DNA of 64,000 nucleotides. Origin: a bacterium (GTDB lineage Bacteria > DRYD01). A program made the translations under genes and the position numbers. The notes below the pieces were generated by a model. It made no database searches, was not told the DNA's origin, and saw only the letters and a list, made by a program, of their open reading frames with translations. Where the stretch lies: NCBI GenBank assembly GCA_030549815.1, contig JAUQQQ010000001.1:90873-154872 (forward strand). Reading direction: 5' to 3'. Below are positions 9,913 to 48,267 of this stretch, piece after piece. How positions within the stretch are numbered: the stretch's first letter is position 1; every line of letters begins with the position of its first letter.

Positions 9913-11763
9913 ATGTCAAAAACAAATCTTCCAAAGGGATTTTCTTCTCCAGATGAAATAAAAACAATCATAGCCACCGATTGTGGTTCAACTACTACCA
10001 AAGCAATATTAATCGAAAAACAACCAAATGGAGAATACCGATTAACAACCAGAGGAGAAGCACCTACTACAGTTGAAGCTCCATTAGAAGACGTAACAAT
10101 AGGAGTATTAAACGCTTTCAGAGAAGTACAAGAATTAAGAAACAAGAAAATTTTAACAGATGATTACAAAAATTTAATAAAGCCGGATAATGGTAAAGAA
10201 GGGGTTGATATATACGTTTCTACATCGTCAGCAGGTGGCGGTTTACAAATGGTCGTTGCAGGAGTCGTCAAAGAAATGTCTGCAGAAAGTGCCCAAAGAG
10301 CAGCATTAGGTGGAGGAGCAATCGTCCTCGATACCTTCGCAGTTAATGATGGTAGAAAACCATTCGAAAGAATAGAAAAAATAAGAGAACTTAGACCAGA
10401 TATTATCTTACTAAGTGGAGGAACAGATGGTGGCACAGTTAAACACGTTGTTGAAATGGCTCAATTAATAGCAGCAGCAAAACCTCAACCAAGACTAGGC
10501 CTAACCTACCAACTACCCGTCATTTTCGCAGGAAATAAAAAAGCAACAGACGAAGTATCAAGAATACTATCGAAAGTCGTTGAACTTAGGATAACAGAAA
10601 ACTTACGGCCTACCTTAGATGAGGAAAACCTTCAACCCACAAGGTTAATAATCCAAGATTTATTCTTAGAGCACGTAATGGCACAAGCACCAGGATATAA
10701 AAAACTAATGGAAATGGTAGATGTAGAAATAATGCCAACTCCAGCAGCAGTAGGACTTATAATGCAAAAAATATCACGAAAAAACAATATAAACTTAGTT
10801 GGAGTAGATATAGGAGGGGCAACCACAGACGTTTTCTCCGTAATTAAACAAGACGAAGAATGGGTATTCAATAGGAGCGTCAGCGCAAACTACGGAATGA
10901 GTTATTCAATAGCACAAGTCCTCAAAGACGCAGGAATAGAAAACGTATTACGATGGATACCATTTAACACAAATATCGTCCAACTAAGGAATGCCATAAA
11001 AAACAAAATGATAAGGCCAACAACAATACCCTACTTACTTAAGGATTTAATGATAGAACAAGCAATATGTCGAGAAGCCCTGCGACTATCTTTTGATCAA
11101 CACAAATTACTCGCTGTCGGATTAAAAGGAAAACAAAAAGAAAGGAGTATTTCTGACGCCTTTAGTCAAACAGAAAGTGGAGAAACAATAATAGATATGT
11201 TTGAATTAGATATGATAGTTGGAAGTGGAGGAGTTTTATCACATGCACCAAGACGAAATCAAAGCGCAATGATGATGATAGACGCATTCGAACCTTATGG
11301 ATTTACATTATTAACAGTCGATAGCATATTTATGATGCCACATTTAGGAGTGTTATCAACAGTTCATGAAAAAGCAGCAACCGAAGTATTCGAAAAAGAT
11401 TGTTTAGTATACTTAGGCACATGTATAGCACCAGTCGGAAAAGAAAAAGATGGCATAAAAATAATGGAAGCAGAAGTTATTGATCTCGATACAAATCAAA
11501 AATACGATGTCGAATTATTAGCAGGGGAAATAAAAGTAGTACCAATAAGAGGAAATGCAAAGATAAATATAAAATACTTGCATAAAAAATTTAAACTATC
11601 AAAAGAAGGAAAAGTAGAATCAAAAGAGGTAAGGGGCGGAGTTGTAGGGTTGATATTTGACGGAAGAGGAAGACCCTTAGAATTACCTAAAAATGACTCC
11701 GAAAGAAAAGAAAAATTAAATCAATGGTTCAAAAGTATAAACATGTATCCAGAAAATAAATAG
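9913..11763 (+). CDS. ASKHA (actin-like ATPase) superfamily protein, hydantoinase/oxoprolinase-like or GlmL/MutL-like
   Basis: Two phosphate-binding motifs are present, DCGSTTTKAIL near the N-terminus and VGVDIGGATTDVF near residue 298, with a Gly-rich adenosine motif near the C-terminus. Confidence 0.4.
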   Translation: MSKTNLPKGFSSPDEIKTIIATDCGSTTTKAILIEKQPNGEYRLTTRGEAPTTVEAPLEDVTIGVLNAFREVQELRNKKILTDDYKNLIKPDNGKEGVDIYVSTSSAGGGLQMVVAGVVKEMSAESAQRAALGGGAIVLDTFAVNDGRKPFERIEKIRELRPDIILLSGGTDGGTVKHVVEMAQLIAAAKPQPRLGLTYQLPVIFAGNKKATDEVSRILSKVVELRITENLRPTLDEENLQPTRLIIQDLFLEHVMAQAPGYKKLMEMVDVEIMPTPAAVGLIMQKISRKNNINLVGVDIGGATTDVFSVIKQDEEWVFNRSVSANYGMSYSIAQVLKDAGIENVLRWIPFNTNIVQLRNAIKNKMIRPTTIPYLLKDLMIEQAICREALRLSFDQHKLLAVGLKGKQKERSISDAFSQTESGETIIDMFELDMIVGSGGVLSHAPRRNQSAMMMIDAFEPYGFTLLTVDSIFMMPHLGVLSTVHEKAATEVFEKDCLVYLGTCIAPVGKEKDGIKIMEAEVIDLDTNQKYDVELLAGEIKVVPIRGNAKINIKYLHKKFKLSKEGKVESKEVRGGVVGLIFDGRGRPLELPKNDSERKEKLNQWFKSINMYPENK

Positions 11764-11777
11764 TGTCGAGGTGTAAA

Positions 11778-13364
11778 ATGAATAGAAGAAAAAATCAAAT
11801 CATCGATTCTTTACAAAATCAGGAAATCCCTCAAGCTATTGAAATTAAAGAATCGAATAAAATTGAATTGATTATTAGGGAATCAATGGAATTGCAAAAA
11901 GAAAGGGAAGTTCCTGAGTTAGAATTTTTTGGGGTCTGGGATTATTCTAAAGCACCTGAAGATAAATCATTTATTAAAATAAAAGAAAGCTACGATCTTT
12001 TTATTGGTGGTAATTTTGTAAAACCATCTTCAAATAGATACTTTCCCACAATTAATCCTGCAAACGAAGAAGTTTTAACTCATGTGGCTTATGCGACAGA
12101 AGAAGATATTAATAAAGCCGTAGAAGCTGCAAAAACAGCATATGAAAAATATTGGTCCAAAATGAAACCTAAAGACAGAGCAAAATATATATACAAAATC
12201 GCAAGAATAATCCAAGAAAGATCAAGGGAATTGGCAATAATAGAAACCTTAGATAATGGGAAACCGATAAAAGAGACAAGAGATTTCGATATACCTCAAG
12301 CTGCACAACATTTTTTCTATTATGCAGGATGGGCAGATAAATTGGAATACGCTTTCGTAAATAGGAAAGCAAGACCGATAGGAGTAGTCGGACAAATAAT
12401 CCCGTGGAATTTTCCTTTATTAATGGCAGCGTGGAAAATAGCACCTGCCTTAGCTTGCGGTAATACTGTTGTTTTAAAACCTGCTGAAACCACTCCCCTA
12501 TCCGCACTATTCTTAGCAGAAATAATCCAAGAATCAGGGTTACCCGATGGAGTCGTGAATATAGTAACAGGTGATGGATACACAGGATCACTAATAGTTC
12601 AACATCCAGATATAAAGAAAATAGCATTTACAGGCTCTACAGAAGTAGGTAAAATAATCTTGAAAACTGCAAAAAATAAAAAAGTCACGTTAGAGTTAGG
12701 GGGGAAAGGACCACATATAATCCTTGAGGATGCACCAATAGATCAGGCCGTTGAAGCAATAATTAGAGGAATTTACTTCAATCAAGGACATGTCTGCTGC
12801 GCAGGATCACGATTGCTAGTTCAAGAATCCATCGTAGAAACAATCATAAAAAAATTAAAGGACAGGATGAAAACAATAAGAATAGGAGATCCCTTAGATA
12901 AAAATACCGATATGGGAGCAATAAACTCCTCAATGCAACTTGAGAAAATCAAACAATATGTTGAAATAGGATTAAAAGAGGGTTGCGAATTTTACCAAAA
13001 GAAATGCAACTTACCTTCTAAAGGATACTGGTTTGCTCCATCTTTCTTTACAAATGTAACACAATCTTGCACGATAGCAAAAGATGAAATATTTGGACCG
13101 GTATTAGCGATAATGACTTTCAGGACTCCTGAAGAAGCAATAGAAAGGGCAAATAATACATTTTATGGGTTATCTGCAGGGATATGGACAAATAATCCTG
13201 CAAGATTATTAGAAATGTCAAAACAAATAAGAGCAGGAGTTATATGGGCAAACACGTATAACCAATTTGACCCTGCATCTCCATTTGGAGGATACAAGGA
13301 AAGTGGATTTGGTAGAGAAGGCGGATGGCACGGACTGTTACCATACGTAGAACTCGAGGAGTGA
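11778..13364 (+). CDS. Aldehyde dehydrogenase family protein
   Basis: ALDH signatures FTGSTEVGK, ELGGKGP (Glu active-site box) and FNQGHVCCAGSRLLV (Cys box). ATG 11778 has GAGGTG 5 nt upstream. Confidence 0.85.
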   Translation: MNRRKNQIIDSLQNQEIPQAIEIKESNKIELIIRESMELQKEREVPELEFFGVWDYSKAPEDKSFIKIKESYDLFIGGNFVKPSSNRYFPTINPANEEVLTHVAYATEEDINKAVEAAKTAYEKYWSKMKPKDRAKYIYKIARIIQERSRELAIIETLDNGKPIKETRDFDIPQAAQHFFYYAGWADKLEYAFVNRKARPIGVVGQIIPWNFPLLMAAWKIAPALACGNTVVLKPAETTPLSALFLAEIIQESGLPDGVVNIVTGDGYTGSLIVQHPDIKKIAFTGSTEVGKIILKTAKNKKVTLELGGKGPHIILEDAPIDQAVEAIIRGIYFNQGHVCCAGSRLLVQESIVETIIKKLKDRMKTIRIGDPLDKNTDMGAINSSMQLEKIKQYVEIGLKEGCEFYQKKCNLPSKGYWFAPSFFTNVTQSCTIAKDEIFGPVLAIMTFRTPEEAIERANNTFYGLSAGIWTNNPARLLEMSKQIRAGVIWANTYNQFDPASPFGGYKESGFGREGGWHGLLPYVELEE

Positions 13365-38246: not shown

Positions 38247-38702
38247 ATGTCAGAAAAAAGGACTTCTATAACAGAACATTTTTCTAACATACTTCATTAC
38301 CTTCAAAAAGTAGATGAAGAAATAAAAAACAATCAAAAAATAGAGGAAATAAGAGAAAAATACAAACTAAAAGAATTAGAAGAAGGAATTAGAACAGATA
38401 TAGAACAAATAGAAGAAATGCTACAAGAGACTTTAGAAAAAAAAGAAGATGATGAAAACAATGAAAATTTGAGTGAAGAAGTAAAAAATGTCATATTAGC
38501 AATGGATGAAGCTGCTATCGACATACATGAACATTTTCTTAACATAGCACAACTTTTTTTAGAATATATCAATAATTTTAATAGTGAAATCTTAGAATCG
38601 ATAAAAGAAAAAATTAATGAAGGAGTAATAAAATTAGAAGAAATGCAAGAAATAAACAAAAAGTTAGAAGAAATTATCAATTACAAAAAATATGAAGCAT
38701 AA
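38247..38702 (+). CDS. Hypothetical acidic coiled-coil protein
   Basis: 151 aa, E/K-rich and helical. Overlaps the ruvC start by 11 nt. Confidence 0.4.
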   Translation: MSEKRTSITEHFSNILHYLQKVDEEIKNNQKIEEIREKYKLKELEEGIRTDIEQIEEMLQETLEKKEDDENNENLSEEVKNVILAMDEAAIDIHEHFLNIAQLFLEYINNFNSEILESIKEKINEGVIKLEEMQEINKKLEEIINYKKYEA

Positions 38703-39201
38703 AGAAGAAATAGTAATAGGTATAGATGCAGGAACAACAAGAGTAGGTTTTGCAATATTAAAAAAAACAAACAAGAAAAAGCTGGAACCTAAATTAATAG
38801 AATATGGATTGATGCCTATAAATTCAAATGAACAAAGTAAAAGAATAAAAGAAATTTATGAATATACAAAAAAACTAATAAAAAAATACAAACCACAAAC
38901 TGTAATCGTCGAAAGATTATATTACTATATGAATAAAAAAACTGCCTTTGAAGTAAGTCAAGCAATAGGAGTAATAAATTTGGCTTGCACTCAAAATAAA
39001 ATTCCATTATTCCTCATAAATCCCAGTCAAGTAAAAAAAATAATAACTAATAAAGGAAATGCTAACAAAAAGGAAATACAAGAAGAAATTTTGAATTTTT
39101 TTAATGGACAAATAAAAATGGAAAAGAAAACAATAATAGACGATATAACAGATGCAATCGCTATAGCTTTATCTTTCTTAAAAATAAACAAAAATGCTTA
39201 A
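38692..39201 (+). CDS. ruvC: Crossover junction endodeoxyribonuclease RuvC
   Basis: IVIGIDAGTTRVGFAIL is the RuvC N-terminal Asp motif. DDITDAIAIALSF is the C-terminal catalytic Asp motif. Confidence 0.8.
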   Translation: MKHKEEIVIGIDAGTTRVGFAILKKTNKKKLEPKLIEYGLMPINSNEQSKRIKEIYEYTKKLIKKYKPQTVIVERLYYYMNKKTAFEVSQAIGVINLACTQNKIPLFLINPSQVKKIITNKGNANKKEIQEEILNFFNGQIKMEKKTIIDDITDAIAIALSFLKINKNA

Positions 39202-40537
39202 CTGTAATTTAAGAATCCCTACCCTATTCATCTTATTTATATTATCCTTATCATTTTGTAAAATAACTCCAATAAACCCATCTCAACCAAATATCTTACC
39301 ATCAATTACAAAAAAAATAGACAAAAAAGTAATTAAAGTAATCGTATTAGAAATATCCGGTCCTATAACACCTGCAACTACTTGGTATTTAAACAATAAA
39401 TTCGAAAAATGCAAAAATAAAGACATTGATTTTTACTTAATAACAATAGACAGTGAAGGTGGATTATTGTCATCAATGACAGAAATAATAAAACTTTTTT
39501 ATAACTCGAATCATCCTATAATAACCTATGTTTATCCAAAGGGAAGCAGAGCAGCCTCAGCGGCAATGTTTATCCTAATAGGAGGTCATGTAGCAGTAAT
39601 GTCAGAATCAACAAATACAGGAGCTTCCACACCATTGGTCCAAGATCCCACACTTCAAAATAAAGTTATTCAAGATCTATTAGCTTTTACAAGAAACTTA
39701 TGTCAAAGAAGAAATAAAAACTACGAAGCAATAAAAGAAACTATTACTAATTCAGTGAGCTATACAGAAAAAGAAGCATTGACCAAAAATATAATAGATT
39801 TTATAGCAAAGGACCCTAATGAAATATTTGAAAAAATAAAGAACAAACAAATAAACTTGGATACCCAAGTAGCAATAAAATTAGTTAATTTTGAAAGGAT
39901 AGAATACATCAAAGAGTCTACAAACATGATAGAGAAGTTCTTTCTTTTTATCTCTAATCCTTCCATTGCTTATTTTCTTTTAACTATTGGCTTTTGGGCA
40001 ATAATTATTGAATTGAACAATCCAGGGCTACTTGTTCCTCTAATTGTAGGTATAATCTGTTTAAGTTTGGGATTATTTGGTTTAGGAATTATATCAGCTA
40101 ACATACTTGGTATAATCCTGGTAATTTTCTCATTTATCGTAATGTTATTAGAGCTTAAATTTCAATCTCATGGAATTCTTTTTATAGTTGGTTTAATAAC
40201 TTTCCTTCTTGGTTCGGTCATGTTATTCAAAAAAACTGATATTTATTATCCTTTACCAATAGGAATAATAACAATAACCACATTGATGATTTTATTAATT
40301 TTTGGATATATAATTTACTCTGTGTTTTCAGTAAAAAAAGTTCAGATAAATTTTGTTTCTGATACTGGAAAAGTGGTTGATATAAAGGGTAATAGTTTAT
40401 TCATTAATGTTGATGGTGTATTATGGGAAGGAATTCCGATTAATCCCAATACAACTTTTGAAATTAATGAAGAAGTAAAAATAAAAAAAATAGAAGATTT
40501 AAGGTTAATAATTGATAAAATTGATAAAAAGGAATAA
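39194..40537 (+). CDS. NfeD-like membrane-bound ClpP-class serine protease
   Basis: A signal/TM N-terminus is followed by a ClpP/crotonase-fold region (DSEGGLLSSMTEI...GSRAASAAMFIL) and a multi-TM segment. The C-terminal domain is OB-fold-like. Confidence 0.75.
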   Translation: MLNCNLRIPTLFILFILSLSFCKITPINPSQPNILPSITKKIDKKVIKVIVLEISGPITPATTWYLNNKFEKCKNKDIDFYLITIDSEGGLLSSMTEIIKLFYNSNHPIITYVYPKGSRAASAAMFILIGGHVAVMSESTNTGASTPLVQDPTLQNKVIQDLLAFTRNLCQRRNKNYEAIKETITNSVSYTEKEALTKNIIDFIAKDPNEIFEKIKNKQINLDTQVAIKLVNFERIEYIKESTNMIEKFFLFISNPSIAYFLLTIGFWAIIIELNNPGLLVPLIVGIICLSLGLFGLGIISANILGIILVIFSFIVMLLELKFQSHGILFIVGLITFLLGSVMLFKKTDIYYPLPIGIITITTLMILLIFGYIIYSVFSVKKVQINFVSDTGKVVDIKGNSLFINVDGVLWEGIPINPNTTFEINEEVKIKKIEDLRLIIDKIDKKE

Positions 40538-40540
40538 AGA

Positions 40541-41854
40541 ATGAGATTTATAGGAAGGATAGAACATTTTGGAAGCCTTATATATGATACAGAAAGAAAA
40601 GAATACATACCGATAGATCAAGACGGAACTAACATAATTCTTAATGTATCTTCTAACGTTGACCTAGAAACACTTTATTACAAATATTTTTCACATAGAT
40701 TTAGTTATCTTAATTTTAAAAGTTTCTTACAACTAATACAGTCAATAGAAATGATAGATAAGGACTATAATTCTAACGTTGTTTTTTTAGAAAACTCTGA
40801 TTTGGAATTTTTTTTGAATAATAAATTCATTTCTGCTCCTTTAAAAGTTCATATTGCTCTTACATACGAATGTCATCTAAAATGTAGGCACTGTTTCTCT
40901 AATTCTGGTAAAAAAAGTGAAGAAGAAAAAAATTCAGAATTATCACCGGAAAAAATTATGGAATTTTTAGATGAAATAAAAGAAAATGGTGTATTTTACG
41001 TTTCATTTGGAGGAGGAGAACCATTCTTGAAAAAAGAATTCATAGAAATACTAAAAAAAGCAAATCAGAATAAAATGAATATTTCCATTTCCACATCACT
41101 AAGCAGTATAAACGCAAAGCAAATCATAGAAACAATGCAAAAAGAGAATATAAAAATTCAGGAATTCAAAATATCTGTGGAGGCAGTAAATTCAAAAGAA
41201 TACACCAATGTAAGAGGAAAAAATCTATTTGAAAATCTAAAGAACAATTTACAATTAATAATCAATTATAAAAAAGAAAATGATACTTTTATTAGATTTT
41301 CATTTGTTCTTAACAAACAAAACTATAGTTTTTTACCTAATTTTCTAAGTTTTGCAGAGCAATACAGTGCTGACGGATTAGTATTCTATCCAATTTACAA
41401 CGTAGGAAGAGCACAAGAACATCCTGAATCATTCCTTACAAACCAAGAATTAGAAAAAATTCAAAGGATGATTAATAACATGAAAGAAAGAACAAAAATA
41501 GAGATAGAATTTTTTAATATTCCCCTAAAATTCGGTAAAAACGGTTTGTATAACAATTTTGGATGTGGATGTGGTAAGACAACTATTTACTTAGATCCTT
41601 ACGGTAATATCCTACCTTCAGGAATGTTTATTAAATATGGTAGCAAATTTTCATTAGGTAATATAAAGGAAAAAAAATTCAAAGAAATATGGAAAGAAAA
41701 TGTAGAAAAAGAGCTCAACAAAATTGAAGCTGATCCTAAATGTAACAATTGTATGTATTTTGAAGAATGTAAAGGCGGATGTATGTTTAGATCTTTTGAT
41801 AAATATCAAAAATTATCTTATAAAGACCCCACTTGTACAATCAATCCCTTATAA
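40541..41854 (+). CDS. Radical SAM enzyme with C-terminal SPASM domain and N-terminal RRE-like extension (peptide-modifying maturase-like)
   Basis: CHLKCRHC is the CX3CX2C radical-SAM cluster motif, with GGGEPF (SAM glycine motif). The C-terminal CGCGK...CNNCMYFEECKGGC Cys-rich region is SPASM-type. About 100 aa precede the core and resemble PqqD/RRE (GSLIYDTERKEY...DGTNIIL). Confidence 0.75.
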   Translation: MRFIGRIEHFGSLIYDTERKEYIPIDQDGTNIILNVSSNVDLETLYYKYFSHRFSYLNFKSFLQLIQSIEMIDKDYNSNVVFLENSDLEFFLNNKFISAPLKVHIALTYECHLKCRHCFSNSGKKSEEEKNSELSPEKIMEFLDEIKENGVFYVSFGGGEPFLKKEFIEILKKANQNKMNISISTSLSSINAKQIIETMQKENIKIQEFKISVEAVNSKEYTNVRGKNLFENLKNNLQLIINYKKENDTFIRFSFVLNKQNYSFLPNFLSFAEQYSADGLVFYPIYNVGRAQEHPESFLTNQELEKIQRMINNMKERTKIEIEFFNIPLKFGKNGLYNNFGCGCGKTTIYLDPYGNILPSGMFIKYGSKFSLGNIKEKKFKEIWKENVEKELNKIEADPKCNNCMYFEECKGGCMFRSFDKYQKLSYKDPTCTINPL

Positions 41855-41857
41855 TCT

Positions 41858-42454
41858 ATGAAAGAAAATATTTATATTATTTTACAAGACATAAATTTTC
41901 TTATAGAAAAATTAGAAAATCAAGAAACTAATGAAGAATTACAAAATATAATTAAGGAAGCAAAAAGTATTATAAACCAAATAAATAAAGCGTTAGAAGA
42001 GAATAATGAAAAAGAAATCTACAAAAAACTCCTTGAATTAAAAGTTTTAGAATTTAAAATAATATTCCAAGAGGTAAAGGAAACAAATTTTTACAAATTC
42101 TGGGAAACTCTCATTAACAACATAAAAAAAAATATGGTAACCAGTGAAGAGCTTTATGAATTTTATAAGAACGAAATGAATAAACTCTTAATAAATGCTG
42201 AAATAATTTCTAACATATTAATCTTAGAAGATGAAGATATTGTATTTAGGACTATATTAGACATAATGTTTGGTGAAGCATTTAAAAGTTACTATCAAGT
42301 ACTTCAAAAATTACATGAATATATATTCAAAAATAATCCCTCGCTTTTAGATGAAATAAAGGAAGATTTGCCATTGGTAATCTTCTATTTTTTACAAATA
42401 CAAAAGCTAATCCCTGAAGAATATTCAGAAAACGTGGAAAGGTTATTAGAATAG
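41858..42454 (+). CDS. Hypothetical acidic helical protein (co-oriented with rSAM gene)
   Basis: The ORF starts 4 nt after the rSAM stop. No motif found. Confidence 0.45.
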   Translation: MKENIYIILQDINFLIEKLENQETNEELQNIIKEAKSIINQINKALEENNEKEIYKKLLELKVLEFKIIFQEVKETNFYKFWETLINNIKKNMVTSEELYEFYKNEMNKLLINAEIISNILILEDEDIVFRTILDIMFGEAFKSYYQVLQKLHEYIFKNNPSLLDEIKEDLPLVIFYFLQIQKLIPEEYSENVERLLE

Positions 42455-42455
42455 T

Positions 42456-43298
42456 ATGAAAAAAGTAGTAGGATTCATTGGGTTATGTAAAAATGTTGGA
42501 AAAACAACCTTTCTTAATAAATACATAAAAGAAAAAGAAAAGTATTTAATAACGAGTATAGGATGGGATGGAGAAGCAATTGATCATATTTTTGGAATAA
42601 AAAAACCATCCATATTCGTAAAAGAAGGTTCATCTGTTTGTACTTATAGCAATCTAAAACCTACAAAATCAGAAAAAATATCAGAGTTACCTATAGAAAA
42701 TCAGTTTTTAGGTAAATTGGAGATATACCGAATGAAAGAAAACGATATAGTTCAGGTAGCAGGTCCTTCTTCAATTACACAACTTAAAACTTTTCTAAAA
42801 TTTGCCGAAAATTTAGAAATCAGCGAAATAATAATTGACGGAGCTGCCGATAGAAGAATAACCCTTTCAGTTTCAAACGAAATTTTTTATATATGTGGGC
42901 CAACATATTCACAAAATGAACAAAAATTAATTAGAACAATAATTGGAATCATCGAAATGTTTAATATACCTATTATGGAACATGGTCAACAATTTATAGA
43001 AATAAAATCAATCAACAAAACAAATATCAACACATTGGATGAAAACCAAAAATATTTAATTGAAGATTTTAGTAAAATAGTTATGGATTATGAATTAATA
43101 CCAAAAGTTTTAAAAAAATTCAAGATATTTGTAAAAAAGAAACCTGAAAAGTTAAACATTGTAATCAATTCGTTTAATGCAGACCTTATGAAACACACTT
43201 TAAATACATTAAAAATAAAAGAGGAAGTAGGCCAGTTAATTGGTAGCACTAATATCATAGAGATTATAGAGCTTAATGTTAACACCTCTACACTGTAA
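42456..43298 (+). CDS. P-loop NTPase, possibly dethiobiotin-synthetase/CobQ-like fold
   Basis: GLCKNVGKTT is a Walker A near the N-terminus. IIIDGAADRR around residue 125 resembles the DTBS VEGAGG segment. It starts 2 nt after the previous stop. Confidence 0.4.
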   Translation: MKKVVGFIGLCKNVGKTTFLNKYIKEKEKYLITSIGWDGEAIDHIFGIKKPSIFVKEGSSVCTYSNLKPTKSEKISELPIENQFLGKLEIYRMKENDIVQVAGPSSITQLKTFLKFAENLEISEIIIDGAADRRITLSVSNEIFYICGPTYSQNEQKLIRTIIGIIEMFNIPIMEHGQQFIEIKSINKTNINTLDENQKYLIEDFSKIVMDYELIPKVLKKFKIFVKKKPEKLNIVINSFNADLMKHTLNTLKIKEEVGQLIGSTNIIEIIELNVNTSTL

Positions 43299-43346
43299 TA
43301 CATGGATTTTTGTTCTTCACCGAAGCAAACATATTTTTTCTTCTTC

Positions 43347-43371
43347 AAAGGGAGGGCATGCCCACCCTTTC
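43347..43371. terminator. Bidirectional terminator hairpin between convergent genes
   Basis: aaagggagggcatgcccaccctttc is a near-perfect GC-rich palindrome centred on gcatgc, flanked by A/T runs. It lies between convergent stops at 43298 and 43412. Confidence 0.5.
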
Positions 43372-43411
43372 TTATTGCTCATTAAAGCAATTATATTACC
43401 CTGTAAGTAAA

Positions 43412-43942
43412 TTAAACCAAAGTACTTCCACCTCGGTAAAGGGGTGATGACCAACTACCTCCACCTCGGTATGCCAAAACTGTCATTTCAGAATAATCAC
43501 TATGGAAATATCCCCAACTATCACCAAAATTACTTACGAAGTTAGAAAAGCTCATTGAAAAATTTGAAGCAAAGTTCATGGTAGATTGATAAAATCCACT
43601 CATGTTAGAAACAAGGGAATTAAATGAGTTATTTAAGAAGTTTGCTCCAAAAGAAAAAGATGATATAGCGTTAAAACCAGCATTCGCAATATTATTAACA
43701 TTCAAATTATTAACTATATTGTTGAAATTAAAAGAATTAAAAGATGCTTGCATTATGTTTGAAAAGCTGCTGTTAGAAATATGCATGCTATTAAAATTAA
43801 TGTTCTTAAAATTGAAATTATTGCTGCTAACAAACTTATCTTTTATTTTTTGCTTAAACGAGAAATGGACATTATTCTTGTTCATCTTAAAATGCGTCTT
43901 CATTGCACACATGTTATGTCCTAATCCTTTTATCTTGCACAT
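43412..43942 (-). CDS. Asn/Ser/Phe-rich low-complexity repeat protein (candidate RiPP precursor or structural protein)
   Basis: Strong SD AGGAGGTG lies 8 nt upstream of ATG 43942. 176 aa with a basic N-terminus (MCKIKGLGHNMCAMKTHFKMNKNN..) followed by dozens of F-x-S/F-x-N/N-F-N triads. No signal peptide. C-terminus YRGGGSWSSPLYRGGSTLV. Confidence 0.6.
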   Translation of the reverse strand: MCKIKGLGHNMCAMKTHFKMNKNNVHFSFKQKIKDKFVSSNNFNFKNINFNSMHISNSSFSNIMQASFNSFNFNNIVNNLNVNNIANAGFNAISSFSFGANFLNNSFNSLVSNMSGFYQSTMNFASNFSMSFSNFVSNFGDSWGYFHSDYSEMTVLAYRGGGSWSSPLYRGGSTLV

Positions 43943-44134
43943 ATAAATCACCTCCTATTAATAATATAAAAAAATAGTTTAGAAAAGGTATAAAACTTCG
44001 AATTGTTTTACAAAATTTTTACATGCTTTCCTGAGCTTTTTTTACATTATTTTTAACATTTTTTTTACATTTTATTTTTATCTTTTCTAACTTTTTTAGC
44101 ATTTACGTTATTTTGTCAAAAAATTAACAAGAAA

Positions 44135-46392
44135 CTAAAAACTCCAGTTTAATCCCAGAAAAATACTCTTTTTATAGCCAGGATACCTTGTCATAGGACG
44201 AGATAAATCTAAACTAAGTGGACAATCATATTTTGTATTAAATAAGTTATTAACGTAAAGAGTAAAATATTTATTTTGGTCGATATAATAACGTAAGGTT
44301 AAATTTGCGAGCCAATATGATTTTATTTTTTTCTCTGGTTCTGGAAAAACACCTTGACTTACCAACCAAGCCCAACCATCACTATTTATTAACCTCCTGT
44401 AATCATCAACTAAAACATCTGAAGTATATTTTAATTCAAAAGCAACAGATAAATTATTTGTAATATTTTGTCCATATTTTGCAAGTAGCAATAATTTAGG
44501 GGAATTTGGCAAGTATTCAAATATACCAGGAATTCCCTTAGTTACTCTAACGTTAGAATATGAAGCAGAAAATCTAATAAATTTTCTATGAGAAAACTGA
44601 TAAACATAATCTAAAAAAGCCCCTGTACTTTCTAAATTTCCATAACTTTTAAATACAAGCACACTTTCATCATAAGAAGCATCACCTGTAGTATCCGCTA
44701 AAGCACTATACTCATTTATTAGATTAGTTATCTTTGTAGAAAATACAGAAAAAGTAAAATAACTATTAACGTTTCTTTTTTTATATTCAGAATAGTATAT
44801 TAACTCCAGTGTTCTATGTCTTTCCGGAAATATTGATATGTCTTCGTTGGGTGCAAGATAATAACTCCACGTTCCATTTTCAATAACTTCATTGAAAAAT
44901 GGGAATCTTATATTTTGGGAATATATCAACTTTATAGCTTTATTATCCTTAATTTTCTTAATTATACCTATATTTGGAATAACTGCTGGTTTCGCATAGA
45001 TATTTTTTATTTGAAAAACATATCCTGTGCTAGTTACCTGGGAAAAGTTTTTATACATATTGGAATAATCATCATATCTTGCCCCTAAAGCTAAAATTAA
45101 ATCGTCCTTCAAATAATAATCCATATGAAAATACAAGGAAAAAAGGTTAAAGTATCTTTTCCCATTTACAAATTCAATTACAATATTCCTTTCTAAAGGG
45201 TTCAAATCTGAGTATAAAGATTCATAGGTATTAAATGAAAAACTCGATCTTTTCCATTCTAAACCCATCAACAATTCCCCTTTTTTAAATTTATAATAAA
45301 AATCATTTTCTACGGAAAAAATGTTATTTTTAAGCGAAGACACTGCCATACCCCAGTAACCAAGAATCATATTTGAAAAATTCGGTTCATAAACAGCTTC
45401 CTGATGTACACCATAAGAATAATAAGATAACTTTGTTATTATTTTTGAATTAGATGAAAGGTTAAACTTTCTTTCATAAAAAATAAACCTATTTCTATCA
45501 TTCCCAAACGAATAAGGGCTATTTATAAGATAAAAATACCCGCGGGATGGAAAATGATACCTCGATTGATAATCTATATATCCAAATTTTTCCGCTTCAT
45601 TATACAAGTAAAGAGCAAAATTAGAAGAGTAAGATCTATCAGAATAGTATAATCTATCATCTATTACAAAACCAAAATTAGGCAATGTAAAATCATTTAT
45701 GATTTTTTCTCAGGAAAGAAAATTTCTCTACCTTTGTAATTAACAAAATCCCACGACAAACTAAAATAATAATTACCAATTTTTTTATTAATCATGAATC
45801 CATTGTTGTTATTGATTTTATTATCATAGAAACTAAAATAACTATAGGTTTTGAAAACAGTATCCTTATAATAATCATCTTTATAGTACTTAAAGGATGG
45901 TATTAGATTTATTGTAGCAAGTAATGAATTGCTTCCAAAGTACACATTTGAATATCCATGGACTATCTCCAAAGCATGTACATAATTAGAAGGAATATTA
46001 ATAGGATATCCAGAGAAATAATTGTTTATTTGGTATCCATCAAATAAGAATAAAGATCTGGAGTTTATTGAGCCCGGTATTTGTATACCTCTATTTCCCA
46101 GGGACCAGTAAGTACCGTTATCTATAACATACAAACCTGGAGAAAAGTTTAGCAACGTTTTTAAATCAGGGTAATAAAAAAATCTTAGCTCCAAAGGCTG
46201 AACTAAAGATATAGTAGCAGCTGACTCTAATACACTCTTTGTGTATTTTGTAGAACTTTGAACAGTATTTATAAATTCTGTCTCCTCCATTATATATTCC
46301 TTATCATCTATCTCAGAAAAAGAGCTTTTTATACATATAAGAAAAAACGATAAAATAAAAATTAATGTTCTCAACTTTATAACCAACTTCAA
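44135..46392 (-). pseudogene. TonB-dependent receptor (plug + beta-barrel) interrupted by a frameshift in an A7 homopolymer
   Basis: The 45697-46392 ORF has a signal peptide and plug domain (NIPSNYVHALEIVHGYSNVYFGSNSLLATINLIP). The 44135-45685 ORF is the barrel, ending ...LGLNWSF. The frames overlap at the gagaaaaaatca tract (45703-45709) and ±1 nt fuses them. Confidence 0.65.
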
Positions 46393-46404
46393 TCCCTCCC
46401 AAAA

Positions 46405-47316
46405 TTATCTTTGATAATTCTTTTCAATGATAACAAACTTTTCTGGAAAAACATTTTCATACTTTATCTTCTTTAGTCCATAATTTTTAATAAAATCAAT
46501 AACTTCAAAAGCTAAATTCCCATAATCAAGAGCATAAACTATATCAACTCCATAGTTTAACAGAATTTTCTGAGTTGAAATTAACAATTTGTCTTTTCTT
46601 TTACAATAATAAATTAGTTTCAAAAGATTGTCTTCGTCAAGTACAAATACATCAGGTAGTAAAAATATAACATCAAATTTATCCAAAATTTCATCTATCT
46701 TATCCACATTGTAATTATTAACATTTATAGGATAAACGTTCAGTCCTTCTTTTTTACCAACATCCACCGCATACTTAACACTATACCCTCCTAAGTTGTA
46801 TATTATACCAACATTATTTTTATCAGGATATCTATTTTTTATGTCTCTAAACACTAATAGAAAATCTGGATAAGGGTAAAATACCACTACTCCTGAAGGT
46901 ACACCGATAACCTCGGGAGATAAAACCAAACACCATATATTTAAAGCTTTCCTATTAAAATTTTCCTTTGATAGATTAGCACCTTCACTCGCTATAGAAA
47001 TAACAACATCATATTTCATTAAATCATATTTTCTAATATCTTTAATACCAATAACATCACAATCATTTTTTCCGTAATAATTTACAAAATTGTCAACAAA
47101 AGATTTTACAACCTGATTTTCCTGCCCCATTAAAAGAGCGACCTTATATGTTTTTTGATCCCTAACTACAGACTGTGAAATATATATTTCATTTTTTGAA
47201 AATTCAAAAAGACTGCTAATAAAAGAATAGTAATCATCTTCATAATCATCTTCAGCAAAAACAGTAAAAGATAAAAAAAAGAATAATGTTAATAAAAAAA
47301 ATAAACTTCTATTCAT
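46405..47316 (-). CDS. Secreted/periplasmic substrate-binding-like protein (possibly ABC_sub_bind-type)
   Basis: Signal peptide MNRSLFFLLTLFFFLSFTVFA. An alpha/beta periplasmic-binding-like pattern is seen; family assignment tentative. Confidence 0.4.
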   Translation of the reverse strand: MNRSLFFLLTLFFFLSFTVFAEDDYEDDYYSFISSLFEFSKNEIYISQSVVRDQKTYKVALLMGQENQVVKSFVDNFVNYYGKNDCDVIGIKDIRKYDLMKYDVVISIASEGANLSKENFNRKALNIWCLVLSPEVIGVPSGVVVFYPYPDFLLVFRDIKNRYPDKNNVGIIYNLGGYSVKYAVDVGKKEGLNVYPINVNNYNVDKIDEILDKFDVIFLLPDVFVLDEDNLLKLIYYCKRKDKLLISTQKILLNYGVDIVYALDYGNLAFEVIDFIKNYGLKKIKYENVFPEKFVIIEKNYQR

Positions 47317-47335
47317 TTTTAGCCCCCTGTTTCAT

Positions 47336-47656
47336 TTATATATTATCTTCCAGAAATTTAATTAATTCTTTTTTAGATATAAAGCCAACAATATTATTAA
47401 CAACTTTTCCATTTTTGAAAAGTAGTAAGGTTGGTATTCCACTTATGTAATATCTTTGTGCTATTTCTATATTATCGTCGGTATTAATTTTGACGAATTT
47501 CACTTTTCCTTGATATTCTTTAGCAACTTCTTCGAAGATTGGTTCAAGCATTTTACAGGGCATACACCATGGAGCCCAAAAATCGACCAATACAGGAACA
47601 GGACTATTTAAAACTTCATTTTCAAAAGTATTCTGTCCTACATGAATTACAGCCAT
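47336..47656 (-). CDS. trxA: Thioredoxin (variant CMPC active site)
   Basis: VLVDFWAPWCMPCKML with typical Trx fold length (106 aa) and cis-Pro region GIPTLLLF. Confidence 0.8.
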   Translation of the reverse strand: MAVIHVGQNTFENEVLNSPVPVLVDFWAPWCMPCKMLEPIFEEVAKEYQGKVKFVKINTDDNIEIAQRYYISGIPTLLLFKNGKVVNNIVGFISKKELIKFLEDNI

Positions 47657-47748: not shown

Positions 47749-48267
47749 CTATTTCTTTTTTTCAGCCATTTGCATAATTTTATCTTTAACAATATTATAT
47801 ATACCTCCTCCTATTGTGGCTCCTAATATTCCGCCTATAGGACCCCCTAACATAGCTCCAGCAGTTGTCAATAATGCAATATTAAAGAAATCTATAACAC
47901 CATGTTTTACTCCATCCAATCCCTTAAGAACTCCACCCAAACAAGCTACTTTCATTCTATTTTCTTTGTCAACGCCAACATCCTTAGCTGCAAGGTAACT
48001 ATTTATAGCTCCACTAAAAGCACCATATCCCATAACTAAAAATGGATAATAAATGCCCGACGCCAAGGTAAGAGTTCCTTTTAACATACCCTTTGCAAAA
48101 GAATCAAGAGTGCTTCTTTCATATCTATCCGCCTCAATACTTACTTCTTTTTTACCTTTCGGCCCTTTAATAAGCATGCTTTTCTCTTTTATCTCAACAA
48201 AATCATTTAAACCTTTTTTCTCTACAGATAATATTTCAAATTTTTGATTGATTTTATTAACTTCCAT
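47749..48267 (-). CDS. Hypothetical protein with C-terminal glycine-zipper membrane segment
   Basis: The C-terminal GAMLGGPIGGILGATIGGGIY is a GxxxG repeat. The N-terminal domain is soluble. Confidence 0.45.
   Translation of the reverse strand: MEVNKINQKFEILSVEKKGLNDFVEIKEKSMLIKGPKGKKEVSIEADRYERSTLDSFAKGMLKGTLTLASGIYYPFLVMGYGAFSGAINSYLAAKDVGVDKENRMKVACLGGVLKGLDGVKHGVIDFFNIALLTTAGAMLGGPIGGILGATIGGGIYNIVKDKIMQMAEKKK

Follow-up and report, generated by a model that had tools for sequence, protein, structure and literature searches.

The locus analysed here raises the question of which molecule its radical S-adenosylmethionine (rSAM) enzyme modifies. The enzyme is encoded in a stretch of 64,000 nucleotides (assembly GCA_030549815.1, contig JAUQQQ010000001.1, positions 90,873 to 154,872; hereafter, the window), and an earlier reading of the same DNA, the first-pass annotation, had coupled it to a neighbouring gene for an Asn/Ser/Phe-rich (NSF) protein, regarded as a multi-core triceptide precursor. 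The evidence points elsewhere. We explain the locus as a lineage-restricted operon of the Calescibacterota, in which the enzyme, an rSAM/SPASM protein, forms a core with a 198-residue acidic protein (p198), and to which a KamB-like P-loop nucleoside triphosphatase (NTPase; p280) is added in the genus Calescibacterium. The probability that we assign to this explanation as a whole, including p198 as the substrate, is roughly 0.5; p198 is our best guess for the substrate or partner of the enzyme. The window is AT-rich (GC content of approximately 28%), and the nearest database proteins bear the name Candidatus Calescibacterium sp., as would be expected of a Calescibacterium-type genome. Altogether, 76 loci were compared; L numbers denote loci or strains, and P numbers denote proteins.

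The enzyme gene has the coordinates initially given for it (Table 1). Its product comprises an N-terminal domain resembling the recognition element (RRE) of systems for ribosomally synthesized peptides that are post-translationally modified (RiPP) (residues 1 to ~95), a radical SAM core (residues ~100–320) and a SPASM region (residues 342–432). Matches exceeded the Pfam cut-offs for both Radical_SAM (PF04055; 72.2 bits, cut-off 29.5 bits) and SPASM (PF13186; 30.8 bits over residues 342–404, cut-off 21.5 bits). The CX3CX2C motif and the cysteine-rich C-terminus noted earlier are both present, as C111, C115 and C118 and as seven C-terminal cysteines. The GX4C cysteine of canonical SPASM domains is replaced by Ser360, which makes the ligation of auxiliary cluster I uncertain.

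In the AlphaFold2 (AF2) model of the whole protein (mean predicted local distance difference test score, pLDDT, of 80; predicted template modelling score, pTM, of 0.83), the N-terminal ~70 residues adopt the β1-β2-β3-α1-α2-α3 topology of PqqD-like RREs at a pLDDT of ~90, with strands at residues 3–8, 11–16 and 21–26 and helices at residues 27–35, 42–50 and 56–68. The stretch RFIGRxEYFGSL...EYIPxD of this domain is nearly invariant across phyla, and ten residues (R6, E8, F10, G11, S12, L13, Y22, P24, D26 and T30) do not vary among 22 sequences with identities as low as 22%. Although the Pfam PqqD model did not match the N-terminal domain, its modelled topology and its alignment with the N-terminal domain of SuiB agree with the RRE-like character previously ascribed to it. 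In PDB profile alignments, residues 5–433 of the enzyme aligned with residues 30–458 of the SuiB chain, RRE domain included, and SuiB was also the first structure retrieved by Foldseek (E = 6e-18, TM ~0.66, 457–471 aligned columns), followed by SkfB, PqqE and CteB. The Pfam domains, the invariant cysteines, the AF2 topology of the RRE and the full-length SuiB matches thus support the assignment of a genuine RRE-bearing rSAM/SPASM enzyme of the peptide- or protein-modifying maturase type, and the architecture that the first-pass annotation had recognized is upheld.

The family to which the enzyme belongs is a different matter. None of the curated NCBIfam cut-offs was reached. The best match was to MftC (140.1 bits, E = 9e-41), followed by NirJ2, GeoRSP, NirJ, PqqE (92.2 bits) and StsB; a tungsten-cofactor maturase and AhbD were also among the best similarities, and SCIFF maturase and AlbA scored lower. 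The top ranks in the PDB profile search were held by PqqE (E = 1.4e-23), CteB and SuiB, ahead of the anaerobic sulfatase-maturating enzyme (anSME; E = 1.2e-14). Identity with MftC (TIGR03962, cut-off 265 bits) or PqqE (TIGR02109, cut-off 381 bits) was rejected on the basis of these scores and of the neighbourhood, in which neither mft genes nor a pqq context were seen. An anSME identity was rejected likewise, given the weaker structural match, the presence of an RRE and the position of anSME outside the 25 best NCBIfam families, the number considered. The same 25 matches include no model of three-residue cyclophane-forming enzymes (3-CyFE; XyeB, GrrM and FxsB), and with PqqE, CteB, SuiB and SkfB as the best structural relatives, the proposed membership in the 3-CyFE/FxsB group could not be sustained. 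A viperin-like role in anti-phage defence was also discarded, as pVip matches (52–55 bits) were limited to the generic rSAM core and weaker than those to SPASM families.

Close homologues of the enzyme fall into only a dozen clusters (53–99% identity), all from metagenome-assembled genomes (MAGs) of the Calescibacterota type. Full-length relatives with 27–34% identity come from metagenome contigs and from MAGs that are either unclassified or carry the label Armatimonadetes or Candidatus Xenobia, and two weaker genome matches (22–23% identity) occur in Enhygromyxa and Planctomycetota MAGs. The RRE strands, RxEYFGSLIYD...EYIPFD, rank among the most conserved stretches in the 27–34% relatives, and these distant homologues likewise never reached an NCBIfam cut-off. 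The enzyme is therefore a member of an uncharacterised, phylogenetically scattered RRE-rSAM/SPASM family.

Gene order provides the strongest indication of a partner. On the + strand, the genes for RuvC, NfeD, the rSAM enzyme, p198 and p280 follow one another, overlapping or 1–3 nt apart; the rSAM and p198 genes are separated by 3 nt, and the p198 and p280 genes by 1 nt. The tight operon with two co-oriented proteins described in the first-pass annotation is thus confirmed, including the acidity of p198 and the P-loop of p280 (GxxKNVGKTT), and genes spaced so closely bear out the statement that no precursor open reading frame (ORF) lies upstream of the rSAM gene. The first tblastn survey included 13 Calescibacterota loci with sequence 3′ of the rSAM gene, and in all of them the next gene encodes a p198 orthologue (45–100% identity), at a distance of no more than 30 nt or with an overlap in every case; the rSAM-p198 arrangement was identical in the operon loci examined later. 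The pairing spans two clades (53–99% rSAM identity) whose surrounding genes differ: RuvC-NfeD-rSAM-p198-p280-thioredoxin in the genus clade, and a divergent gidB, rSAM-p206 and an M24 peptidase in the other (the 55% clade). The rSAM enzyme and p198 form the only invariant association at the locus.

AF2 predicts p198 to be an eight-helix bundle (pLDDT 85), and fold searches retrieved generic helical bundles only. Orthologues are conserved along the full length. Over residues 181–198, the pLDDT drops to 64 and then to 50, and the segment from residue 184 to 192 is probably flexible in view of the model. This tail carries a conserved motif: 17 orthologues share I185, P186, E188, Y189 and N192 without exception, according to the pattern I-P-x-E-Y-[S/A]-[E/K]-N, and the C-terminal peptide of p198 reads ...QKLIPEEYSENVERLLE. 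Pfam, NCBIfam and PADLOC yielded no significant family (sub-threshold E ~0.009 in each of the first two), and the p198 family is tiny, with two distant homologues (P0058 and P0059) among 1.84 billion representatives. Both retain P186 and E188. At L033 (8001–9954), the P0058 gene (221 residues, tail ...LLPEEYERD...) has a 29-nt overlap with a downstream gene for a 438-residue AstE/AspA/M14-carboxypeptidase-like protein.

p280 matched the NCBIfam KamB model (NF052386) over model positions 2–203 of 326 (E = 9.5e-37; 126.7 bits against a cut-off of 210 bits), and no solved structure was matched by either the single sequence or a profile. The protein is restricted to the Calescibacterium-genus clade (rSAM identity of at least 64%) and in the 55% clade no p280 gene accompanies the rSAM gene. 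We read p280 as a putative NTP-dependent accessory protein confined to one genus; the literature on KamB and the reactivase was uninformative in this respect. In another part of the window, an aldehyde dehydrogenase gene comes after that of a GlmL-family protein of the glutamate-mutase accessory or reactivase type (9913–11763; 235 bits, short of the cut-off), the two extending over 9913–13364. B12 mutase genes were not found near this segment, and the p280 gene lies 30 kb away.

The NSF ORF is probably a real gene, because it is preceded by a strong Shine-Dalgarno sequence, contains 176 open codons in a stop-rich genome and is open in a second strain type. The ribosome-binding signal attributed to it is indeed there (AGGAGG, 43956–43951, 8 nt before the ATG at 43942), as is the basic N-terminus; residues 38–140 include a single charged residue. 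Taken together, Asn, Ser and Phe account for 48% of its residues versus 19% in the long ORFs of the window. The "dozens" of F-x-S, F-x-N and N-F-N triads reported earlier were an overestimate. There are 12 F-x-[SN] and three N-F-N triads, and composition-preserving shuffles of the protein give 8.1 ± 2.2 of the former (p = 0.06 for the whole protein, 0.24 for the core); only the [SN]-F dipeptide is enriched (17 versus 8.1 expected, p = 2e-4).

The distribution of the NSF ORF is extremely narrow. Pfam, NCBIfam and PADLOC assigned it to no family, and among 5.8 billion proteins, its homologues form two clusters (90% and 84% identity), both apparently from the same species; the contigs of the 90% cluster show an identical genomic position. 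By tblastn, a match was found only in the 99%-identical strain L005 and in no other Calescibacterota locus. Relative to L005, the last ~25 residues are replaced, and the first 150 codons differ by 7 synonymous and 10 non-synonymous changes. Approximately 10% of the residues differ between near-identical strains, a pattern that would not be expected of a selected core peptide and that gives little sign of purifying selection. The C-terminus is ...YRGGSTLV in the window and ...WPKLWGK in the strain variant, neither of which corresponds to F-X-S-X-X-COOH. A family of proteins ending in "RGGG...YRGG" was also considered, and the NSF ORF proved to be its sole carrier in the window. Upstream of the ORF, four copies of TGTAAAA spaced 11–23 nt apart (44012–44069, − strand) could be a regulator-binding site; the same region borders an insertion in L005.

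Closely related strains separate the NSF ORF from the operon. In L029, the p198 of which is 98% identical, a 3.4-kb deletion fuses codon ~122 of a 303-residue gene to the last 33 NSF codons, and L027 (p198 92% identical) lacks the segment corresponding to 43207–47339; the rSAM, p198 and p280 genes are intact in both. The variable block coincides with the interval between the p280 and thioredoxin genes. The NSF ORF is located at the end of a cluster consisting of a TonB-dependent receptor gene and an ABC-substrate-binding-like gene, which has been gained, lost or damaged between strains. Because close strains that retain the operon have deleted the NSF ORF or lack it, the ORF is very unlikely to encode the substrate; it is a species-restricted orphan outside the rSAM system, and its product is of low complexity, probably disordered, and dispensable. 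Co-occurrence of the NSF gene with the rSAM operon, on which the first-pass annotation had made its proposal depend, was thus contradicted at the other loci. The apparent link is shown to reflect no more than the proximity of the two genes and low complexity in a genome rich in AT.

The receptor gene of this cluster is split into two ORFs in the window and is intact, at 750 residues, in L038–L040. The frameshift lies in a poly-A run (~45703–45709) that is one A shorter in the window, and the split gene could be a pseudogene, a case of phase variation or an assembly error. In L005 and L038, the block contains an additional ~910-bp insertion with an ORF ending in ...GIRGGGNWDYRGGNV, which echoes the end of the NSF ORF (...AYRGGGSWSSPLYRGGSTLV). 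A 172-residue ORF with a Gly-rich hydrophobic C-terminal half (47749–48267, − strand), situated between the thioredoxin and aminoacyl-tRNA synthetase genes, is present in L038 and not in L029, and is thus another strain-variable orphan.

The operon and the NSF ORF are convergent, and a GC-rich hairpin lies between them. The predicted folding energy is −16.2 kcal/mol on the + strand and −20.1 kcal/mol on the − strand (z-scores of −2.8 and −4.1, respectively), and a U-rich tail (UUUCUUAUU) follows on the + strand only. The element resembles an intrinsic terminator that would serve the + strand operon; of the bidirectional terminator originally described, the hairpin between convergent genes is confirmed. 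An Rfam scan of the entire window returned no RNA families. At the head of the operon, the order 151-residue protein/RuvC/NfeD is conserved in L002, L003, L006, L027, L029 and L030 and not in the 55% clade. The 151-residue protein was considered as a p198 paralogue and rejected (hhalign probability of 12%).

Precursor-like genes were found beside distant relatives of the enzyme. In many of the homologues with 27–34% identity, an ORF of 50–160 residues is located upstream on the same strand and ends 90–250 nt before the enzyme gene. These ORFs carry the motif [D/E]-h-x-h-x-L-N-G-x-[G/N]-[S/T] (hereafter, the LNG motif), followed by a core of 8–27 residues, as in ...FSDLALNGLGSKEIIYLGV, ...NDLGGLNGPGSREIHYMGAGFAS and ...FKDLGLNGPGTVQNQ...IYLLQE. 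Such ORFs stand in at least seven separate distant loci and match no NCBIfam model. Their leader-core organisation looks like that of RiPP precursors and so lends support to a RiPP-type role of the enzyme family. A hidden Markov model of the LNG leader, run over every six-frame segment of the window, gave a best E value of 1.6, and the motif is absent from both the NSF protein and p198. A different small ORF (25–26 residues; MLQLIPSEILFSYSVNICIKISYDL), preceded by a GGAGG Shine-Dalgarno sequence and ending 17–20 nt before the rSAM gene, is found in one subclade of the 55% group (L004, 1256–1333; L012, L047, L054 and L067). It was rejected as the precursor, being absent from L001, L011, L046 and the whole genus clade and having no homologue in the window; its similarity to the p198 tail was not significant at either the DNA or the protein level.

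p198 is proposed as the protein recognised by the RRE because it forms, with the rSAM enzyme, the sole invariant association and because its tail is conserved. As a further part of the explanation, we propose the flexible tail as the site of radical modification; the full scheme, with the KamB-like NTPase assisting, is tentative and on balance unlikely. According to this scheme, the fused RRE of the Calescibacterota enzyme would dock onto p198, and reductive cleavage of SAM would then lead to abstraction of a hydrogen atom in or near the LIPxEYSEN tail. At the Glu/Tyr pair, this would yield a cross-link or modify a side chain in some other way, by analogy with what PqqE does to Glu-Tyr and MftC to Val-Tyr. 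The KamB-like p280 would assist as an NTP-dependent accessory chaperone, and the NSF-rich protein would take no part.

A number of points weigh against p198 as the substrate. Its modification is an inference. The protein is modelled as a folded eight-helix bundle, unlike a typical leader-core peptide, and its gene is downstream, not upstream, of the enzyme gene. The role of the tail motif may be structural only, since helices are commonly capped at the N-terminal end by P-E-E. The P0058 and P0059 loci have no nearby rSAM gene, and in one of these proteins, Phe replaces the tail Tyr. The absence of p280 from the 55% clade implies that it is not essential to the rSAM-p198 pair. Since p198 lacks the LNG motif and the window lacks an LNG-type ORF, the substrate could be encoded elsewhere in the genome. 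A cross-phylum substrate signature was sought in the motif IPEE[YF]SE, common to p198 and a Cys-containing Xenobia ORF of 83–88 residues; this was treated as chance, as the hhalign match covers 11 residues at a probability of 9.5% and the motif is not kept in the orthologues of the Xenobia protein in L060 and L063. In Xenobia-type MAGs, conserved proteins of 83–109 residues with four Cys (...YCENIIxCY...CxYSGISPxYPxPL...) are encoded 3′ of the rSAM homologues (L017, 4063–4314; orthologues in L018, L020, L060 and L063).

The points raised against p198 lead to the first alternative, in which the substrate is a small precursor with its gene at another place in the genome, and p198 and p280 serve as accessory proteins (scaffold, chaperone or immunity). 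We consider this a possible, if doubtful, explanation. It accords with the LNG-motif ORFs upstream of distant homologues that share the near-invariant RRE strands, with the 25–26-residue ORF preceded by GGAGG in one subclade of the 55% group, and with the folded nature of p198, in which no LNG-type motif occurs. It is at odds with the content of the window, which in 64 kb holds neither an LNG-type ORF nor a homologue of the 25-residue ORF, and with the patchy occurrence of the latter, missing from L001, L011, L046 and the genus clade; moreover, the operon is linked to neither a peptidase nor an exporter of the kind typical for RiPP clusters, and p198 is the one gene that invariably accompanies the enzyme. 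Another alternative is that the enzyme serves the maturation of a housekeeping protein or cofactor outside any RiPP system, as do anSME, tungsten-enzyme maturases and NirJ/AhbD; p280 would then be a chaperone of the reactivase-like type, and p198 would act as an adaptor. The operon is set amid genes for RuvC, NfeD, thioredoxin and HU, with no transporter or protease; NirJ2, NirJ, AhbD and the tungsten-cofactor maturase figure among the best NCBIfam similarities; p280 is akin to one of the subunits of a reactivase that acts on a cofactor enzyme; and a GlmL-family protein is encoded in the same window. Such a role is nonetheless improbable. The enzyme carries an N-terminal RRE, which the cofactor enzymes NirJ and AhbD are not known to have, the best structural matches are the RRE-bearing SuiB and SkfB with anSME lower, precursor-like ORFs stand beside distant homologues, and p280 is absent from half of the family.

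The model of the first-pass annotation, in which the enzyme cross-links the triads of an NSF multi-core precursor into three-residue cyclophanes as in triceptide/FxsB-like systems, retains very little credibility. Its appeal is understandable: the two genes are adjacent, the NSF protein combines a basic N-terminus with an uncharged core with 23 Phe and 12 F-x-[SN] triads, and an RRE and a SPASM region are shared by the enzyme and 3-CyFEs. However, the NSF ORF accompanies the enzyme in no locus other than that of a 99%-identical strain, is deleted or absent in strains with p198 identities of 98% and 92% that keep the operon, and is an orphan among 5.8 billion proteins. It forms a convergent transcription unit behind the hairpin and lacks the leader motif of the candidate precursors of the family; its C-terminus and ~10% of its residues vary between near-identical strains, its end is not of the F-X-S-X-X-COOH form, and its triads are no more numerous than composition predicts. 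As no 3-CyFE family occurs among the 25 best NCBIfam matches of the enzyme either, the NSF protein, previously named as the best substrate candidate, no longer holds that position.

A multi-core triceptide precursor of 176 residues would have been striking, and the evidence does not uphold it. What stays is an RRE-rSAM/SPASM family locked to p198 in the Calescibacterota, plus a KamB-like NTPase in one genus. Should p198 be the substrate, the reach of RiPP-style radical chemistry would grow to include a folded, protein-sized product of a housekeeping operon, in a thermophilic phylum that branches deeply. A new RiPP class would become open to genome mining if the LNG-motif ORFs are precursors.

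Table 1. Coordinates of the features described in the text. Positions refer to the window, except in the last two rows, which refer to other loci.
Feature	Position	Strand	Basis
rSAM/SPASM enzyme, 437 aa	40541..41854	+	Pfam, AF2, Foldseek, PDB profile
RRE-like (PqqD-type) winged-helix domain	40541..40825	+	AF2 topology, conservation, SuiB alignment
CX3CX2C (C111/C115/C118), radical SAM [4Fe-4S] ligands	40871..40894	+	invariant cysteines in two alignments
SPASM region (C342, C344, C401, C404, C410, C414, C432)	41564..41836	+	Pfam; conserved in alignments
p198, predicted all-helical acidic protein, 198 aa	41858..42454	+	pI (isoelectric point) 4.65, AF2
p198 tail motif L-I-P-x-E-Y-S-E-N (aa 184-192), low-confidence tail	42407..42433	+	orthologue alignment
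p280, KamB-like, P-loop GLCKNVGKTT (aa 9-18)	42456..43298	+	NCBIfam NF052386, conserved motifs
GC-rich hairpin (GGGAGGGCAUGCCCACCC + flanks) between convergent genes	43347..43370		folding
NSF-rich orphan ORF, 176 aa	43412..43942	-	sequence, composition, homologue search
Segment deleted in L029	43513..46950		blastn breakpoints, junction sequence
TonB-dependent receptor (plug + barrel), split into 231-aa and 516-aa ORFs	44135..46392	-	Pfam Plug, TonB_dep_Rec_b-barrel
Upstream operon genes: 151-aa protein, RuvC (38692-39201), NfeD (39194-40537)	38247..40537	+	Pfam, NCBIfam
LNG-motif ORFs	L014 2522-3001; L017 2208-2513; L059 6-161; L060 3516-3815; L066 3392-3799
LNG-motif variant ORFs	L022 9418-9894; L053 438-731

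Comparison with characterized systems places each component of the operon near, and not within, a known group. p280 is homologous to KamB, the reactivase subunit of lysine 5,6-aminomutase, over the N-terminal two-thirds, P-loop region included, and the last ~120 positions of the KamB model are unmatched. In contrast to the aminomutase context of KamB, the p280 gene is linked to an rSAM gene, and kamD and kamE are not adjacent. As for the triceptide systems, these rely, like the locus described here, on rSAM/SPASM enzymes, and they are defined by aromatic-to-Cβ cross-links on Ω1-X2-X3 motifs (PMC11499958). Formally, triads of the Ω1-X2-X3 type can be read in the p198 tail (Y-S-E) as well as in the NSF ORF; the difference is that the precursor proposed in the first-pass annotation, the NSF protein, does not co-occur with the enzyme, and its triads are at the level expected from composition.

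The enzyme shares its full-length organisation (RRE, rSAM core and SPASM) with SuiB, the maturase that installs the Lys-Trp cross-link of streptide and whose gene adjoins suiA. Sequence identity between the two proteins is only 17–19%. The substrate of SuiB (PDB 5v1q, 5v1s and 5v1t) is the short precursor SuiA, bound in 5v1t, whereas the partner found here is a 198-residue helical protein, and no short precursor is adjacent.

By sequence, the nearest characterized relatives are PqqE and MftC, although the scores are far under the family cut-offs, and neither a PqqA- or MftA-like peptide nor other pqq or mft genes are seen at this locus. PqqE and MftC use separate RRE proteins (PqqD and MftB, respectively); a fused RRE distinguishes the enzyme described here. 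The targets of PqqE and MftC are C-terminal regions that contain Tyr, in which PqqE forms a Glu-Tyr cross-link and MftC carries out Val-Tyr decarboxylation and cyclisation, and the conserved p198 tail, with its E-E-Y sequence, may be compared with them.

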